Positions 36,422 through 43,622 of a stretch of DNA of 43,982 bases are shown here, piece after piece. This DNA is from a virus. The stretch lies in UHGV virus genome UHGV-0179801; one strand, 5' to 3'. The notes beneath the pieces were generated by a model. It was not told the DNA's origin, ran no database searches, and saw nothing but the letters and a program-made list of their open reading frames with translations. Numbering within the stretch: the stretch's first letter is position 1; each line of letters begins with the position of its first letter. The position numbers and the translations under genes are program-made.

Positions 36422-36918
36422 TGCATCGGGTCCCAAATTCGAGGAAACGTTGATTGCGCAGTTCCGTAGGCTTTAAGGAGGCACCCCAGCACATCACCAT
36501 AGCAACCATACAAATCTGGCAGATTGTTAACAAGGCACTGATTATCTTCGTCCTGAAACGGCGATTTCTCGGCGGTTGCCGTGAAAGTAATCGTCCAGTT
36601 AATACCGTCTTCGGTGGCCTCGGCGATGGTGGATGTGATCGTTACCTGATAGTCCTCAATACCCATGCCGAAGTCGTGCGCCATCCAGAAACTTGACGCA
36701 CCGCCATCGACTTTCTCAAGGAACGACAGGAACGCCTGCCGCCCTAGTGCAGATGTAATCAGGGTTACGCTTATCGGAAACACGTCGTAATATGTGTCAC
36801 GGCCCTGACGCACCCCGCCACCGGCTAAATCGACACTCCAGACGTTGTTACGTCTGGTCATTGAGTAGCCTTTTGACACCACCGGCTTAAGGCTACGTGG
36901 AAAGTATAAGTCAGTCAT
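36418..36918 (-). CDS. minor tail protein (lambda M-like / distal tail)
   Basis: ATG overlaps the tape measure stop (TAATG); assigned by gene order. Confidence 0.5.
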   Translation of the reverse strand: MTDLYFPRSLKPVVSKGYSMTRRNNVWSVDLAGGGVRQGRDTYYDVFPISVTLITSALGRQAFLSFLEKVDGGASSFWMAHDFGMGIEDYQVTITSTIAEATEDGINWTITFTATAEKSPFQDEDNQCLVNNLPDLYGCYGDVLGCLLKAYGTAQSTFPRIWDPMQ

Positions 36919-39341
36919 TATTTAAACCCCGGCGCGTTTCTTGTGGCCTTGCGGGCCTTGCTAATCTTACTGTTGCTGTTCTGCAAAGACGCAGCCACTT
37001 GCTCTTCGATGATGATACGCAGACGTCCTTCGTCATCTTGTTCAGTAGACACATTGCCAATCTGACTCGATGTGTTATTTACGATGGTAACATTAGATGG
37101 GCCACTATTTCCGCTATTATTGCCGTTTAACTGCTGCCGTGTTTGGCTTGCGTTTACCGCGCGCCCCGCCCCCGCCATCTTGATAATCTCTGGGCCGCGC
37201 TCACCGACAAGATAGCTGCCGCCAGCGTTCATTTGCCCGCCCTGTTCGCGGAATCCGGTTAAGGCTAACGCTTGGGTACTCGCAACCGTTGATGTGATGC
37301 CCGCCATCGCCGGTGCGCTGTTTGTCCCTAGGGTAGCCAGGGACGCCATAGCTGCAGCGGGGGCATACGCTGCAGCAATCGCCGCTCCGGTAGCCGATGC
37401 TGTCGCGATGGACGCCGCGGATGCCGTTTGGCCTGTAATCATGTTTTTCAGGTACTCCACCCCCATCTGTGTTAGCCCTGAAACGACCGATGACAGGATT
37501 GCGTTGCCGAGGTTTGCCATTGCTTCGCTAGCGGTCTGAGTACCATTAATAAGTCCGACTATGGAGCTGGACGCGGAAGCACCCACAGCGTCCAGGGAGT
37601 CCATAAGCATATTGTTCCACTCGGATTGGTTGCGGAAACGCTCCTCGGCAGCGGCAGCCAGCCCATCGTTATATTGCTTGTCCAGTTCCGCCCGTGCCTG
37701 CAACGCGACTTCATGCACGGAGTTTTCTTGTGCCTCGTACTCCTCTATAACCGCAAGCCTTTTCTGCCGCTCGAGCTGTAAGTTAGCGATAGGGTCTATT
37801 GACGCCAGAACCGCCACACCTTGTTGCAGTTTTTTCTGTTCCTCGGCTAACTCTTTATCAATAGCGTCTTGTCGTTTTTGCCCGTATTGAAGAACTATTG
37901 CTGTTTTCGCCTTTTCGTATTCTTCAGCAGTTAGCGCCCCTTCTTTTCGGTATTTAGCGGCCTCCTTAAGTTTCTGCTGTTCCTGCGCGTTAATAGCCTT
38001 TAACTCATCGTTGTTCTGACGAGCCAAAGTGTCGAGATAATCTTGCGCCTGTTTACGCAATTGCTCCGCTTTCTTAGCGGCGGCTTTCGCGTCTTTGTCG
38101 TTGGTGTTTCCTGTCCCACCAGTCCCGCCCTTTTTATTAACAAGGCTGGCCAAGTCAATTTCTTGCTTCCTGCGCTCGTCGTACTGCTTGCGCTGCTCCT
38201 CAATTTCTTTCTTGCGCTGCTTAGACCTGTTGGTAATGGCCTGTGATTCGGCCTCTGCACGTTTTATGCTAGCGTCATACGCGGCGTCAGCCTCTGCGGT
38301 CAGGTTTTTAAATGTGAGCGCTGCCGTTTTGCTCGGGTCAAACACGTCGGCAAGGGTCTGGCCAAGCGCTACGGCGTAATCGTCAATGCGCTGGAACCAC
38401 GCAATAACCTCGTGGAATGTCTGCTGAATGTCAGGCAACCATTCACGGATAGCATCTGGAATAGTCCCCAGCGAGTCTGACATATCCGCGGATTTGTCCT
38501 CGGTATCGAATGCCAGGTCATTCAGGGCATCAGAAATAAACTTGAACGACTCATTGAACAGCGTCACCCAATCCTGGAGCGTGGCTGCTATCTCATTAGA
38601 CACTATAGCGTCGGTGAGCGCCGTTACTGCGTCTTCTGCCAACGCAGCTTGTTCGCCTACGGCGTCGCCAAAACCAGACTGCGCTACCGCAAGAACAAGG
38701 CCGTCGAAGGAGTCGGCGAGGCTCGACAACTGACCATCTAATGTCTTCGAGCGCGTCTCCATCGCCCCGGCGAAATCGGTGTTGCCGATGTTTAACAGAT
38801 ATTTCTGAATCTCTTCGGAGTTCTTTTTAACCGTGGTGGTAACGCCGCGGAACGTGAACGACACTGTATCCGCCTGTTGCGACGACTTGATGCCAAACTC
38901 TTTTAGTCGCTCAAACTCAAAGGTACTGGCGTCGGCAACTGCCTCAATCATCTGATTAAGGTCTTTACCCATAGCCGCCGCGGTGTTGCCGTAGGAGATT
39001 AATGCCTCTTTGCTGGGGTTCAGGCCCAGAGCCACCAGCTTAGTAAAGCCTTCCACCGCCTGATTAAGCCCGTATGGTGTTTCTTTTGCGAACTGTTGCA
39101 GGACGCTGAAAGCCTTAGCGGCATTCTCAGCGCTCCCGGTCATCGTGATGAGGCCAGAGTTCAGCTTATCGAAGTTTCGCTGGGATGCCACCAGCGCACT
39201 GAACACCTGCTTGGCGGTTTCCAGGCTGACAACGGCAGCGGCGGCCGCCCCCGCCGCCTTAGTAAGCCCGTTCAGTTGGGATGTGGTTTTATCGACGCCG
39301 GTCGATGATACTCGTACTATCAAGCTAGCGGTATCAGCCAT
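36918..39341 (-). CDS. tail tape measure protein
   Basis: 807 aa with long Gln/Lys/Glu/Ala-rich predicted coiled coils (KQRKKEIEEQRKQYDERRKQEIDLASL...) and Gly/Ala-rich C-terminal region; follows the chaperone pair. ATG 39341 preferred over track start 39356 (TTG). Confidence 0.8.
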   Translation of the reverse strand: MADTASLIVRVSSTGVDKTTSQLNGLTKAAGAAAAAVVSLETAKQVFSALVASQRNFDKLNSGLITMTGSAENAAKAFSVLQQFAKETPYGLNQAVEGFTKLVALGLNPSKEALISYGNTAAAMGKDLNQMIEAVADASTFEFERLKEFGIKSSQQADTVSFTFRGVTTTVKKNSEEIQKYLLNIGNTDFAGAMETRSKTLDGQLSSLADSFDGLVLAVAQSGFGDAVGEQAALAEDAVTALTDAIVSNEIAATLQDWVTLFNESFKFISDALNDLAFDTEDKSADMSDSLGTIPDAIREWLPDIQQTFHEVIAWFQRIDDYAVALGQTLADVFDPSKTAALTFKNLTAEADAAYDASIKRAEAESQAITNRSKQRKKEIEEQRKQYDERRKQEIDLASLVNKKGGTGGTGNTNDKDAKAAAKKAEQLRKQAQDYLDTLARQNNDELKAINAQEQQKLKEAAKYRKEGALTAEEYEKAKTAIVLQYGQKRQDAIDKELAEEQKKLQQGVAVLASIDPIANLQLERQKRLAVIEEYEAQENSVHEVALQARAELDKQYNDGLAAAAEERFRNQSEWNNMLMDSLDAVGASASSSIVGLINGTQTASEAMANLGNAILSSVVSGLTQMGVEYLKNMITGQTASAASIATASATGAAIAAAYAPAAAMASLATLGTNSAPAMAGITSTVASTQALALTGFREQGGQMNAGGSYLVGERGPEIIKMAGAGRAVNASQTRQQLNGNNSGNSGPSNVTIVNNTSSQIGNVSTEQDDEGRLRIIIEEQVAASLQNSNSKISKARKATRNAPGFK

Positions 39342-39666
39342 GATTTCTACCTTCAAAGATTGCTTCTAAGCCCATGATAATGTCTATCTCGAACAGGCTA
39401 AGCTGTTTTTGCGTAACATCGAGATAGGCTTTCAGGTCTTGCCACGTAACGGATTCTCTTGCAAACAATACTACAGCGTCCTCGCGCACGTGTCGCGTAA
39501 ACTTAATGTCACAGTACGTCTCAAAGGTGGATATAAAAAGGGGCGGGCATTCTAGCCCACCCCGTCGCGCTGCACGTTTTTTCTTATCGATTACACCCAT
39601 CGCGATAAGCGCCTGTTCGTGTCCGTCAGCTATAGAATCAAACTCTCTGATTTTATGCTTGTCCAC
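39334..39666 (-). CDS. tail assembly chaperone, T-like frame (likely made as a G-T fusion)
   Basis: ORF in the -1 frame relative to the upstream chaperone; its frame stays open back to 39723, overlapping the last 8 codons of the G-like gene. Confidence 0.45.
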   Translation of the reverse strand: MDKHKIREFDSIADGHEQALIAMGVIDKKKRAARRGGLECPPLFISTFETYCDIKFTRHVREDAVVLFARESVTWQDLKAYLDVTQKQLSLFEIDIIMGLEAIFEGRNHG

Positions 39667-39698
39667 AAACTCATAGGTGGCGAACCTGTACAGCGCGT

Positions 39699-40115
39699 CT
39701 ACTTTTCCTGTAATGCTTTGCGCTCAGCGTTATGGAACGCAGCTACCTGGGTTCCAAGCCCTTTGAACTGGTCCAGCAATTTGTTAAATGCTTCTTTAGA
39801 GAAAGGCTCATCAAAACTCCAGCCGTTTACTACTTCTGCCGCGAGTTGTCGGTTGAGATCTTCCGCCAGTTCGTTAACCGCCAGGTTATATTCAGTATAG
39901 TCGCCGGATTTTTTGGCGGCTTTTTCCAGTTCTTCGAAACGCGCCAGCCCGCGGCGGTACGCGATAATGAAAGCACGCCCGGCTTTAACGGCGGCATCCG
40001 CATCCGGATTTACAACGTTAAGCCACTCCCCTGAGTCTTCACCATTTGGTAGGAGAATGGGCATCTTCTTGCCTACCAGTGCTTTCTCTTCGAAATAAAA
40101 ATCAGAAAGTTTCAT
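39699..40115 (-). CDS. tail assembly chaperone (lambda G-like)
   Basis: 138-aa acidic protein between the major tail gene region and the tape measure gene; AAAGGA RBS. Confidence 0.55.
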   Translation of the reverse strand: MKLSDFYFEEKALVGKKMPILLPNGEDSGEWLNVVNPDADAAVKAGRAFIIAYRRGLARFEELEKAAKKSGDYTEYNLAVNELAEDLNRQLAAEVVNGWSFDEPFSKEAFNKLLDQFKGLGTQVAAFHNAERKALQEK

Positions 40116-40222
40116 TCTTTGATCCTTTGGTTAAGAGGTTACAGGTTAAGGGAAATGCGCCAGACGGGAACCACCCGCTTTTCGTGTGCGACACTAGGCG
40201 CAAACTTATTCTAGCACACTAC

Positions 40223-40251: not shown

Positions 40252-40281
40252 TCACTTACACCAACAATGGAGGAGTTTAAA

Positions 40282-40473
40282 ATGTCAAGTTTACCAGTTT
40301 CCTTAATTCTGTTTGCACTACTCGCTTATTTTGCGCCTTTCCTGGTTGCATATTTCCGCAACCATAAAGCGAAGTTAGCGATATTCATGGCTAACCTGTT
40401 TCTTGGCTGGATTCTGCTGCCGTGGGTATTTATTTTAATCTGGGCTTGCAACTCGAATGTCAAAGAGAAGTGA
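40282..40473 (+). CDS. small membrane protein (63 aa)
   Basis: ATG 40282 after GGAGGAG RBS; two hydrophobic helices (LPVSLILFALLAYFAPFLVAYF, LFLGWILLPWVFILIWA). Confidence 0.5.
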   Translation: MSSLPVSLILFALLAYFAPFLVAYFRNHKAKLAIFMANLFLGWILLPWVFILIWACNSNVKEK

Positions 40474-40510
40474 GCTAGTATAGGACAAATCCTAAGCACG
40501 AGGAATAAGC

Positions 40511-41641
40511 ATGGCCAGGAAGAAAATAACCGACGAACAGTTGCAGGAAGAATTGAACGCCGGTATGAAGAATATCGACATCGCTCGTAAATACGGCATC
40601 TCAGACCGCGTTATTCGCATCCGTAAAGCGAAGCTGGCAAAGAAAGGCGTAGGTCATGGGCGCGACGTTAGCCACCTTGTGCCAGATGGCTACAAGATTA
40701 AAGGAACGTCGTCACTTGTCGATGAGTTCGGCAACACTAAATTGCAATGGGTTAAGACCGACACCGATGCTGAACGTCAGGTTGAACTGATGAAAGCCGT
40801 GGTTGAAGGTATGAAGTCAGAGATTACCCCGGTTGCGCCTGTTAAAGCGACTCGAGCCAAACGTGACGATAAACTGCTCAATCTTTACACTGTGTCTGAT
40901 TTCCATCTCGGTATGCTTGCATGGGCCGACGAGAGTGGCGACGACTGGGACATGAAGATTGCAGAAGACCTGTTCTCTCGCTGGTTCGACGCAGCGTTTC
41001 AGAAAGCGCCGGACGCAGGAACGGGCGTTATTAACCTGCTTGGTGACCTTGCGCACTTCGATAGTCTGGATGCCGTTACGCCGGCAAGCGGTCATGTTCT
41101 TGACGCAGACACGCGCTATCAGAAACTGGTCCGCTACATGATTCGTATGGTCCGCCGTGTCGTTGATATGGCCCTTGTTAAGCATAAAAATGTTCGCTTG
41201 CTTATTGTGCAAGGGAACCACGACGAGAGTGGCATGATTTGGCTGGCTGAGATGTTCAGTACGCTATACGACAACGAGCCGCGTGTGTTCGTCGATACGT
41301 CACCGGATGTTTACAAGATGGCGCGACACGGCAAAACAACGTTGTTCTTTCACCATGGACATAAAGCACGCTTCGACGCTATCGAGCCGGTTATGATTGC
41401 CAAGTTCCGCAAAGCGTTCGGCGAGAGTGTTTACAGCTACGCTCACGTAGGGCACCTGCACCATCAGAAGATTGTAGAAAGCCGTAACATGATTGTTGAG
41501 CAGCACCGCACTTTAGCGGCTAAAGATGCCTACGCCTCCCGCGGCGGATGGATGTCAGGCCGTAGTGCAAACGTAATTACTTATAGCGCCGAATATGGCG
41601 AGGTCGCGCGTTTAACTATTTCACCGGAGATGCTGGGATGA
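40511..41641 (+). CDS. HTH domain fused to calcineurin-like metallophosphoesterase
   Basis: N-terminal HTH-like NIDIARKYGISDRVIRIRKAK; phosphoesterase motifs VSDFHLG, GDLAHFD, GNHDE, HHGH, GHLHH. Confidence 0.65.
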   Translation: MARKKITDEQLQEELNAGMKNIDIARKYGISDRVIRIRKAKLAKKGVGHGRDVSHLVPDGYKIKGTSSLVDEFGNTKLQWVKTDTDAERQVELMKAVVEGMKSEITPVAPVKATRAKRDDKLLNLYTVSDFHLGMLAWADESGDDWDMKIAEDLFSRWFDAAFQKAPDAGTGVINLLGDLAHFDSLDAVTPASGHVLDADTRYQKLVRYMIRMVRRVVDMALVKHKNVRLLIVQGNHDESGMIWLAEMFSTLYDNEPRVFVDTSPDVYKMARHGKTTLFFHHGHKARFDAIEPVMIAKFRKAFGESVYSYAHVGHLHHQKIVESRNMIVEQHRTLAAKDAYASRGGWMSGRSANVITYSAEYGEVARLTISPEMLG

Positions 41642-41868
41642 CTTCAAAATACAACCGCACAATGACAAACACTCACGGTAGCACTATGACAGTAGATGTT
41701 TACGATGTGCTACGTGCCTTCGACATCCGCGACCCGGCGTTGCAACACGCATTGAAGAAACTATTGTGCATGGGCTTGCGGGGGCACAAGGACACCGGAA
41801 CAGACTTAGCGGAAGCAATTGAAAGTCTGGAGAAGTTACGGGAATATCGAAGCAATATTGACGAATAA
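41638..41868 (+). CDS. hypothetical protein (76 aa)
   Basis: Track ORF, ATGA-coupled to the phosphoesterase gene. Confidence 0.45.
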   Translation: MTSKYNRTMTNTHGSTMTVDVYDVLRAFDIRDPALQHALKKLLCMGLRGHKDTGTDLAEAIESLEKLREYRSNIDE

Positions 41869-42009: not shown

Positions 42010-42036
42010 AAGGCCCCTTTCGGGGCCTTAGTTTTA
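42010..42036. terminator. bidirectional rho-independent terminator (AAGGCCCC-tttc-GGGGCCTT)
   Basis: 8-bp stem with T-tracts on both strands, between the rightward cassette and the convergent major tail gene. Confidence 0.6.
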
Positions 42037-43203
42037 TGCGTAGGTGATGCGCTGGATAACAATAGACGACTGATATTGGTTGCCGGTAGCCTGGCCTTCG
42101 ATGGACTGAGTGATTGACTCTGGTCCGCCAATCTCAGGCGTAACCGCCGTAAGCTCTGCGCGTTTCAAACTGAAAGACATAACCCCGTTTACCCCCGCCA
42201 GAATAGAGTTAATCTCTACCTGCTGTTCATTGATAAACTTCTGAATCATCGCCATGTCGTACAGCTTGCCGGAGATGGAGAAGGTGTTAGCCGCGCGACC
42301 ACGTTCCACGAACGCAACGCTACTGTTCCCTAGTTCAAACTGAGCGGATGCGCCGTTGTCGTTGGTGATGGTCAGAGTATCGCAACGCAACGGCGTAGAA
42401 CCGTCGAACACGGACACATCTACAGAAGAGAACGGCTCGTCAGTGAACGTCACCTGGGAGAAATCAGAGCCAGACGGCGGCGCGGTAAGAATCTCCTGAC
42501 TCAGACCGATGAATGGGAAGCTCCCCGTTACCATCGCGTTAACAGCCTGCTCGATAGTAAAACCGGAGATTTCCACGCCTTTGGTCAACATGTACGCGTC
42601 CGGGTTCCCGCACTGACCTTTGAACCATGTCAGGATGGAGAAAGTCTTACATGCATTACCGGTTTCCAGTTTGTCACCGGTTTTTCCATCGGTCTCAATA
42701 GGGCCTTCGGCGGTAAGGGTGTGCTGAATGCCGGCGCCAGTAACCACAGTAGCTGTTACGGCAGTAACGATGAACGGCTTAGAGTTATCGCCAGTTAAAG
42801 CGTCAAAATACAGAAGGTCCCCGACCTCTACACCGTCAGTAATGAAACTGCCAGTGTTGCGGGTGAAAGTTTTTGCTACCGGGTCTACCGTAATACCAAC
42901 AGCGGATAAGGTTACCCCATCCTGCCACGTAGATGTCATCGCACCAGCAAGGAAATCATCCTGACTACGGGAGCTAAGCTCAATGGCATACTCCCCGCTA
43001 ACCTGTTTGTTACCGGTGCGGATAGATGTAGTTTCACGGCTGCCGTCCAGTTCGTTGGAAGTCAGCGCATCGCGGGTTACAGCGGGAACACCGCCGGTGT
43101 TACGCAACGGCGACCATACCGGGTTACTTGGTGTTACGCCAGGGGTCACTTCCGCCACATAGAATTGCGCGGTATTCGCGCCCTTAAAAGGAGTTGTAGC
43201 CAT
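42034..43203 (-). CDS. major tail protein
   Basis: 389 aa; AAGAGG RBS before ATG 43203; first large gene of the tail block after the neck genes, followed by a strong terminator. Confidence 0.6.
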   Translation of the reverse strand: MATTPFKGANTAQFYVAEVTPGVTPSNPVWSPLRNTGGVPAVTRDALTSNELDGSRETTSIRTGNKQVSGEYAIELSSRSQDDFLAGAMTSTWQDGVTLSAVGITVDPVAKTFTRNTGSFITDGVEVGDLLYFDALTGDNSKPFIVTAVTATVVTGAGIQHTLTAEGPIETDGKTGDKLETGNACKTFSILTWFKGQCGNPDAYMLTKGVEISGFTIEQAVNAMVTGSFPFIGLSQEILTAPPSGSDFSQVTFTDEPFSSVDVSVFDGSTPLRCDTLTITNDNGASAQFELGNSSVAFVERGRAANTFSISGKLYDMAMIQKFINEQQVEINSILAGVNGVMSFSLKRAELTAVTPEIGGPESITQSIEGQATGNQYQSSIVIQRITYA

Positions 43204-43205
43204 AT

Positions 43206-43622
43206 TCACAGCCTCTTGGTGAATGCAATAAAGTTAATTGACAATGGTCGTTTGGCCCATCCGTTTTCTACAATCAGCGGCCCCAGGCTAACCGATTGAA
43301 CCTCGGCGCAGATGTCGTTACGTGAAAATGACTTACCTGCTTTAAACGCCGTGTTAAGTAAGTCTGCCATTTTATTGATTGGCGCGCTACCTTTCACCGA
43401 TGCATAGTTAATGTCGACCTGATAAATACCGGAGCGTTGTTCCGTGAAGAACAAATCCGCCTGTTCCGTATCCGCAAGTAGCATGTAACTAGCCAGATAC
43501 GGCGTATCGGTTGACGTCGGCGCGTCGATGTTTTCAAGTGCTACCTTGATGCCGTTGGCGGTTCCGAAGGCTACCAGCGGCACATCAAACGCTTTTGTTA
43601 AGTCCTCAAAGTAGCCCATCAT
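43206..43622 (-). CDS. tail terminator / tail completion protein (putative)
   Basis: 138 aa immediately upstream of the major tail gene; assigned by gene order. Confidence 0.4.
   Translation of the reverse strand: MMGYFEDLTKAFDVPLVAFGTANGIKVALENIDAPTSTDTPYLASYMLLADTEQADLFFTEQRSGIYQVDINYASVKGSAPINKMADLLNTAFKAGKSFSRNDICAEVQSVSLGPLIVENGWAKRPLSINFIAFTKRL

Follow-up and report, generated by a model that had tools for sequence, protein, structure and literature searches.

A conserved non-canonical A_AAG site adjoining a stop codon probably joins the tail assembly chaperones of a Kagunavirus phage by −1 frameshifting

Phage lambda makes two tail assembly chaperones, G and GT, by a programmed −1 frameshift at the heptamer G_GGA_AAG (Levin 1993; Xu, Hendrix & Duda 2004, 2013, 2014, summarised in PMC5009743), and both proteins are absent from mature virions (PMC5009743). 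Annotated sites lie on average 26-36 nt from the stop codon in two phage data sets (PMC10885494). Shorter −1 sites, of four or six nucleotides, have also been described: IS3 has A_AAG, and sites of the form NNA_AAG are used by IS1222 (G_CGA_AAG) and present in B. subtilis cdd (A_CGA_AAG) (PMC5009743, PMC4066793). Of the tetramers, A_AAG shifts most readily in E. coli; in reporter assays it gave 5.6% frameshifting with a pseudoknot and about 0.15%, barely above background, without a stimulator (PMC4066793). One-tRNA slippage in the P site takes place with the A site unoccupied and does not need a downstream structure (PMC6771820). At a 'shifty stop' (Weiss et al. 1987), a slowly decoded stop codon lies beside a P-site tRNA that can re-pair, as at the +1 sites CCC_UGA and prfB CUU_UGA (PMC3082878).

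We examined a stretch of 43,982 nucleotides of a viral genome (UHGV-0179801; called the window below), which comes from a Kagunavirus (K1G-like) phage of E. coli. In the chaperone region, identity to Kagunavirus phages (ST20, K1G, RP180, fKuEco01 and others) is 95-96%, and K1G and a 25-kb piece of the window share approximately 89% nucleotide identity over 80% of the length. On the minus strand the genes follow the order tail terminator, tail tube-like gene (phrog_290), a cassette on the opposite strand, G, T and tape measure. The gene downstream of T was identified as the tape measure gene by its match to phrog_1538 (E 1e-165); its match to Pfam TMP_3 scored 38.2 bits, under the 41-bit cutoff. 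The two chaperone frames thus lie between the tail tube and tape measure genes, in the same order as in K1G and Bas74. G matched Pfam Phage_TAC_4 (PF08748; 27.4 bits, cutoff 21.1), and the product of the T frame matched Phage_TAC_18 (PF23812; 62.8 bits, cutoff 27). Both also fall on phrog_15027, a 259-position profile of the fused protein, with G on positions 1-138 and the product of the −1 frame on 135-259, so that the pair matches the Guernseyvirinae-like fused chaperone from end to end. We found no relatives among solved structures; the single weak match, 7uek, had no significant stretch.

The opposite-strand cassette, which separates the tail tube gene from G, contains a homologue of superinfection-immunity (Imm) proteins, a metallophosphoesterase or 'DNA repair exonuclease', and a 76-aa reading frame that matches only the C-terminal third of ATPase-like PHROG profiles of about 235 aa. 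This last frame looks like a remnant of the genes for an ATP-binding protein and a polynucleotide kinase that K1G has at the same place.

The criteria that we applied for a chaperone pair of the G/GT type are attributed to Xu, Hendrix and Duda (2004) and were drawn in part from PMC5009743. The second reading frame at this locus lies in the −1 frame relative to the first and overlaps its 3' end, as it does in 87 other loci. The G-like frame ends ...GCA TTA CAG GAA AAG TAG, and AGGAAAAG occupies positions 39709..39702 of the minus strand (coordinates of the features are collected in Table 1). The list of open reading frames gives T only from a GTG, as 39334..39666 (110 aa), which is one part of a longer open −1 frame: following a TGA at 39726..39724, this frame stays open for 129 codons, beginning at 39723 and closing with the TGA at 39336..39334, and overlaps G by 22 nt, which is the last 7 to 8 codons of G. 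The sequence and its reading frames thus agree with the first-pass annotation, which had put the T-like frame in −1, open back to 39723 and overlapping the last eight codons of G, with G ending in CAG GAA AAG TAG. Within the overlap, A_AAG is the only Z_ZZN in the zero frame, and no other slip site was found there. The first codon of the −1 extension is GTA (39702..39700). The predicted GT fusion has 260 aa and a computed weight of 29.6 kDa, and the same calculation gives 15.5 kDa for G alone. At the far end, the T frame and the tape measure gene overlap in ATGGCTGA (39341..39334), which contains the T stop and the tape measure ATG (39341..39339). G is the only one of the 30 long reading frames of the window to end in A_AAG and a stop.

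Table 1. Coordinates of the chaperone locus and of neighboring features in the window.
Feature	Position	Strand	Basis or remark
G-like tail assembly chaperone gene	39699..40115	minus	standard decoding; 138 aa, 15.5 kDa
Slip site G_GAA_AAG (putative)	39702..39708	minus	sequence and comparison across loci
Core tetramer A_AAG	39705..39702	minus	sequence and comparison across loci
G stop TAG, candidate 'shifty stop'	39699..39701	minus	adjoins A_AAG in 87/88 loci
GCG CTG hexanucleotide (Ala-Leu in the −1 frame)	39691..39696	minus	synonymous positions frozen; 5-10 nt past the slip site
T-like extension in the −1 frame, 122 codons and TGA	39334..39702	minus	translation
Tape measure protein gene	36918..39341	minus	phrog_1538, sequence
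Intrinsic-terminator-like element	39535..39563	minus	within T-frame coding sequence
Leader matching int-alpA RNA	40140..40204	minus	RF02996; just upstream of the G start (40115)
Opposite-strand cassette	40267..41868	plus	
Superinfection-immunity (Imm) homologue	40267..40473	plus	
Metallophosphoesterase/'DNA repair exonuclease'	40511..41641	plus	
76-aa reading frame	41638..41868	plus	
Tail tube-like gene	42034..43209	minus	phrog_290
Tail terminator gene	43206..43622	minus	

This arrangement resembles lambda in several respects. In both, an overlapping pair of frames lies directly upstream of the tape measure gene, the second frame is in −1 and has no start of its own, the slip, here a predicted one, falls on a lysine codon in ...A_AAG, and a short chaperone is expected in abundance beside a rare fusion. 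The protein families differ, however, being Phage_TAC_2 (PF06894) and Phage_tail_T (PF06223) in lambda; BLASTP of the window's G and T against lambda G and T gave no alignment, and on this measure the pair is outside the lambda family. Lambda also differs in that its heptamer is canonical and lies 15 nt (five sense codons) before a TGA, whereas G_GAA_AAG adjoins the stop, and in that the window has the opposite-strand cassette between the tail tube gene and G. The first three nucleotides of the window's heptamer are not XXX, so it is not a canonical X_XXY_YYZ site; with AAG as a zero-frame codon behind an A, it has the form of the minimal Z_ZZN and NNA_AAG sites. As at those sites, the tRNA-Lys would move from AAG to AAA and the preceding codon, ending in A, need not re-pair, which fits lineages that have GCA_AAG or TCA_AAG at this position. 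The tested tetramer sites need a 3' pseudoknot to rise above background (PMC4066793); here none is conserved, and a stop follows directly instead. The stop would be in the A site beside a P-site tRNA that re-pairs well in an overlapping frame, as at shifty stops, but the classic utilised shifty stops direct +1 shifts and the direction here is −1, and a stimulation by the stop is suggested only by its invariant position.

The G-T frameshift fusion is already annotated in the type species K1G and in other relatives. Joined coding sequences are on record for K1G (NC_027993), fKuEco01, fFiEco02, Pantoea AH01 and Shewanella 3/49, and RefSeq lists for K1G an ORF22A (G) and an ORF22B joined from two pieces. 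All of these genes are orthologous to the window's pair; in K1G the slip region is identical (caggaaaagTAGacgcgctgtac), the junction is the same (...LQEK/VDALY), and the window's version of the fused protein differs by a few residues. By exact look-up, this junction was found in the deposited proteins ADA82267.1 and YP_009168804.1 (both K1G), QNO11738.1 and UniProt D2XJ88; neither the alternative junction ...LQ/GKVD nor the window's own fused sequence was among the deposited proteins searched in this way. Among the relatives that have joined coding sequences or fused proteins of the same junction on deposit, identity ranges from about 25-31% to 96%. Public annotation is nevertheless inconsistent: T is annotated as its own gene, beginning at a CTG or TTG 8 nt past the G stop, in Bas74 (PQ850627), SETP13 (NC_022752) and Schulenburg (MK931438), and the records, including that of SETP3 (EF177456), variously start a separate T at CTG/TTG or at an internal codon or call it a hypothetical protein. 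The announcement of the related phage Shashou describes the case as lacking a canonical slippery sequence (PMC6776780), and our literature search found no experimental test of the frameshift in this phage group (Guernseyvirinae). What we add is a family-wide demonstration, from sequence comparison, of selection on the non-canonical site at the nucleotide level, together with an invariant adjacency of a TAR stop and a frozen hexanucleotide on its 3' side. This selection, the stop adjacency, the avoidance of TGA and the frozen GCG CTG were not reported in the papers or database records that we searched.

We compared 88 loci with G homologues, collected in IMG/VR, among GenBank phages and in two bacterial genomes (84 distinct sequences). 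Clustering 86 of them at 80% G identity gave 20 clusters, which reach down to about 25-31% identity with the window. Only two loci came from a scan of genome contigs, and one of these is the degenerate copy in Sodalis. Searching for homologues of the fused protein by word index gave 7 short matches that had no junction information, and tblastn against phage records was used instead.

The comparison, which had been proposed with the original reading as a check, found A_AAG and the adjoining stop to be invariant in 87 of the 88 loci and in all 20 clusters: G ends in NNA AAG followed directly by TAA or TAG. In 87 of the 88 loci, too, a −1 frame of approximately 120 to 190 codons reaches the tape measure gene. 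Codon 137 is GAA, GCA, GTA, AAA, GGA or TCA, encoding six different residues (E, A, V, K, G, S), and its third base is always A; the last lysine codon is AAG in 20/20 clusters. Based on codon usage in the window (AAG, 43% of lysine codons; GAA, 55%; GCA, 22%; GTA, 27%; TCA, 16%), the nominal chance of AAG in all 20 clusters is ~5e-8 and that of a third-base A at codon 137 throughout is ~2e-9, figures that treat the clusters as independent although they are related by descent and that are therefore upper bounds on significance. The base before GAA is G in every GAA-type cluster, and codon 136, to which that base belongs, is CAG, TCG, GCG, TTG, CTG, ATG or AAG (Q, S, A, L, M or K). Because this G is kept while codon 136 varies, G_GAA_AAG itself is, as judged from the alignment, conserved at the nucleotide level.

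The first-pass annotation had called the heptamer non-canonical. This holds for G_GAA_AAG in the window, and canonical forms occur at the same position in some relatives: G_GGA_AAG in an RP180-like locus and A_AAA_AAG in Shewanella 3/49 and in cluster L103. In two other loci (L025 and L026), the −1 frame has a TAA 8-10 nt before the G stop and opens only 7 nt before that stop; a shift there is therefore confined to C_GCA_AAG, where only the tRNA-Lys can re-pair. The single exception among the 88 loci is on the chromosome of Sodalis sp. RH13 (NZ_CP178740.1, 3416467-3418208), where G (31% identity) ends in GCA AAA GCC TAA and the −1 frame has only 83 codons. This is possibly a decaying prophage copy.

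Conservation passes from one frame to the other at the proposed slip site. We calculated entropy per position for 20 representatives of the clusters and found third-position periodicity in the G frame as far as AAAG and in the −1 frame from GTA on. A peptide motif of the −1 frame, V-x-A-L-Y-x-F-A-x-W-x-F-V-...-K-F-D-S-I, is conserved from the third T codon, and the first conserved ATG is T codon 35 (39600 in the window). In several clusters, none of the first 34 T codons is ATG, GTG or TTG. The second frame thus has no conserved start and ribosome binding site of its own, and its conservation begins in the overlap. Translation of T from its own start at 39666, an outcome that the first-pass annotation had named as evidence against a frameshift, seems unlikely because this GTG is GTC or GTT in close relatives. 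Judged by these comparisons, the arrangement of G and T is far beyond chance.

A stop codon directly 3' of a re-pairable codon, here A_AAG_TAG, is what places the site among candidate shifty stops (87/88 loci). This stop is TAG in 13/20 clusters and TAA in 7/20, and never TGA. By comparison, the 30 long reading frames of the window end in TAA (17), TGA (10) and TAG (3), so TAG is in excess after the slip codon (13/20 clusters versus 3/30 frames). The avoidance of TGA is not a constraint on the protein, since TGA would keep valine (GTG) in the −1 frame. Downstream of the stop, GCG is kept in 19/20 clusters, as is CTG. Third-position entropy at these two codons is 0 to 0.29 bit, compared with 0.94 to 1.99 bit at 29 other conserved G-T residues that have several codons. 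The leucine codons seen at the position of 39693 are CTG and TTG only, both of which are also possible weak start codons.

We looked for flanking stimulators, and found neither a conserved hairpin or pseudoknot on the 3' side nor a conserved SD-like element on the 5' side; the linear, frozen GCGCUG was the only such feature. A single-sequence fold of 113 nt from the site was no better than shuffled sequences (z = -0.64), RNAalifold on the 20 representatives gave no consensus structure in any of six windows around the site and no conserved pairing partner for GCGCUG, and an Rfam scan of the region had no match at the slip site. A stem between GCGCUG and upstream codons resembling CAGCG can be drawn in some lineages (the window, L057, L060) and is absent from others, and was rejected. 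As a 5' SD-like stimulator we considered AGGA, but the upstream positions vary and AGGA is absent from the GCA, GTA and TCA lineages. The frozen hexamer also does not fit, by eye, the consensus for transcriptional pausing (G-10 Y-1 G+1).

Overall, we consider it very probable that the Kagunavirus G and GT chaperones are made through a −1 slip by a minority of ribosomes at G_GAA_AAG. The original proposal, that a programmed −1 frameshift joins the chaperones, is supported by the joined coding sequences of relatives and by the conservation of the motif. Most ribosomes would translate G and terminate at TAG. A minority would move back one base at G_GAA_AAG, where the peptidyl- or aminoacyl-tRNA-Lys would leave AAG and re-pair with the overlapping AAA; GTA would then be decoded in place of TAG, and a further 122 codons would be read, giving a 260-aa G-T fusion (...ALQEK-VDALYRF...) that ends on the tape measure start. 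The expected junction peptide is ...ALQEKVDALYRF. If the proteins work as in lambda, the G part would be the one that binds the tape measure protein, the T part would bring in the tail tube protein, and the frequency of the slip would set the ratio of G to GT. Mass spectrometry of virions would be a poor test, because lambda virions are without G and GT and because trypsin would cut the junction at K138.

Two contributions to the slip are likely, and both would yield the identical product. One is a single-tRNA slip on A_AAG, favored by the stop in the A site; it would need no RNA structure and would operate in all lineages. The other is near-cognate re-pairing of the preceding tRNA, from GAA to GGA in the window, which would add to the slip in the GAA-, GGA-, GUA- and AAA-type lineages, the window included. 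We infer from the sequence that slippage occurs and that the stop and the frozen GCGCUG may have roles in it. The absence of a conserved hairpin, pseudoknot or upstream SD-like element at the slip site counts against the frameshift; the lack of conserved 3' structure does fit one-tRNA slippage, which needs none (PMC6771820).

The main rival is independent initiation of T, or reinitiation at CTG 39693 after termination at the G stop. T would then be a separate protein and no fusion would be made, with CTG/TTG 39693 (8 nt past the stop), GTG 39666 and ATG 39600 as candidate starts. Gene callers and several GenBank records (Bas74, SETP13, Schulenburg) start T at CTG or TTG, the leucine codon at 39693 is limited to the two NUG codons behind a frozen GCG, and in GAA-type lineages AGGA lies 11 nt upstream. 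CTG, however, is a very poor start codon in bacteria, and the SD-like sequence is absent from the GCA, GTA and TCA lineages. The other two candidates fare no better, as GTG 39666 becomes GTC or GTT in close relatives and a start at ATG 39600 would drop 34 strongly conserved residues. A separate T would also leave unexplained why A_AAG is invariant, why codon 137 always has A as its third base, why GAA is preceded by G and why relatives have canonical heptamers, and we regard it as very unlikely. Slippage by RNA polymerase on the run of A, rather than by the ribosome, could in principle supply the extra base; the run is four A in the window (GGAAAAG) and six in Shewanella-type lineages. The GCA, GTA and TCA lineages have only three A, however, and the runs known to give productive transcriptional slippage are far longer than that (see PMC5009743 for a general account). 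The need for AAG over AAA as the last codon is, moreover, a signature of tRNA-Lys and the ribosome (PMC4066793), and transcriptional slippage seems to us hardly credible.

A different question is whether the shift could be purely a translocation-coupled slip of two tRNAs on G_GAA_AAG, as in lambda, with no role for the stop or for GCGCUG. The G at −7 is invariant in GAA-type clusters (~1e-3, a rough estimate from codon usage), relatives have canonical heptamers, near-cognate P-site re-pairing of the G_GA type is known in other viruses (PMC5009743), and the lambda heptamer works at 15 nt from its stop. Against this, the P-site tRNA cannot re-pair in 7/20 clusters, which have GCA or TCA at codon 137 and a variable base before it, and these clusters keep the same arrangement. 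The position of the stop next to the site in 87/88 loci, the absence of TGA and the two frozen codons downstream would not be expected if the heptamer alone mattered. We therefore give a pure two-tRNA slip a limited chance, about that of a reading to be kept in mind but doubted.

Two RNA elements near the frameshift locus were also detected. Within the T-frame coding sequence there is an intrinsic-terminator-like element, GGGGTGGGC-TAGAAT-GCCCGCCCC (9 bp, 8 of them GC), followed by TTTTT. Of the 18 clusters with a G-P-E-C-P motif, about 11 have a homologous hairpin with a U tract; a SETP13-like Jerseyvirus cluster is without it. Pairs of the outer stem covary (GA/UC, AA/UU, AC/GU), with 36 double-change cells compared with 17.5 in shuffles (0/500 shuffles as high), and synonymous choices (CTT/ATT and TTT) maintain the U run. 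The T region is rarely translated if, as proposed, most ribosomes stop at the G stop, and the element could serve to end, or to stabilise, a transcript of G alone. Upstream, the leader just before G matches the Rfam int-alpA RNA over its full length, with 33.1 bits (E 1e-5 to 9e-5), which falls narrowly short of the gathering score (35.8). The same motif is at the same place before G in K1G (31.8 bits), Bas74 (27.8 bits) and a 57%-identical locus (33.5 bits); our searches gave no described function for the motif.

Beyond the frameshift itself, the site may be a compact linear recoding cassette, A_AAG + UAR + NN + GCGCUG, in place of a heptamer with an RNA structure, and the terminator-like hairpin may add a further layer. 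This is speculative, and we think it unlikely. On this reading a stop read by RF1 would keep the A site empty while the peptidyl-tRNA-Lys slips back, and the frozen GCGCUG, lying in the mRNA entry channel, would tune termination or slippage. The hairpin at 39563..39535 could add a transcriptional layer, so that more G is made than GT or tape measure protein. If true, the site would be a −1 'shifty stop' that is put to use, and its unstructured 3' stimulator would be of a new kind.

For annotation, the frames of the window should be given as G and a joined G-T coding sequence with the shift at 39702, and not as a chaperone and a hypothetical protein. More generally, this chaperone family offers a natural series in which canonical heptamers, a near-cognate heptamer or the A_AAG tetramer alone occur at one and the same position, so that the contributions of two-tRNA slippage and of one-tRNA, stop-assisted slippage would be directly testable in E. 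coli.
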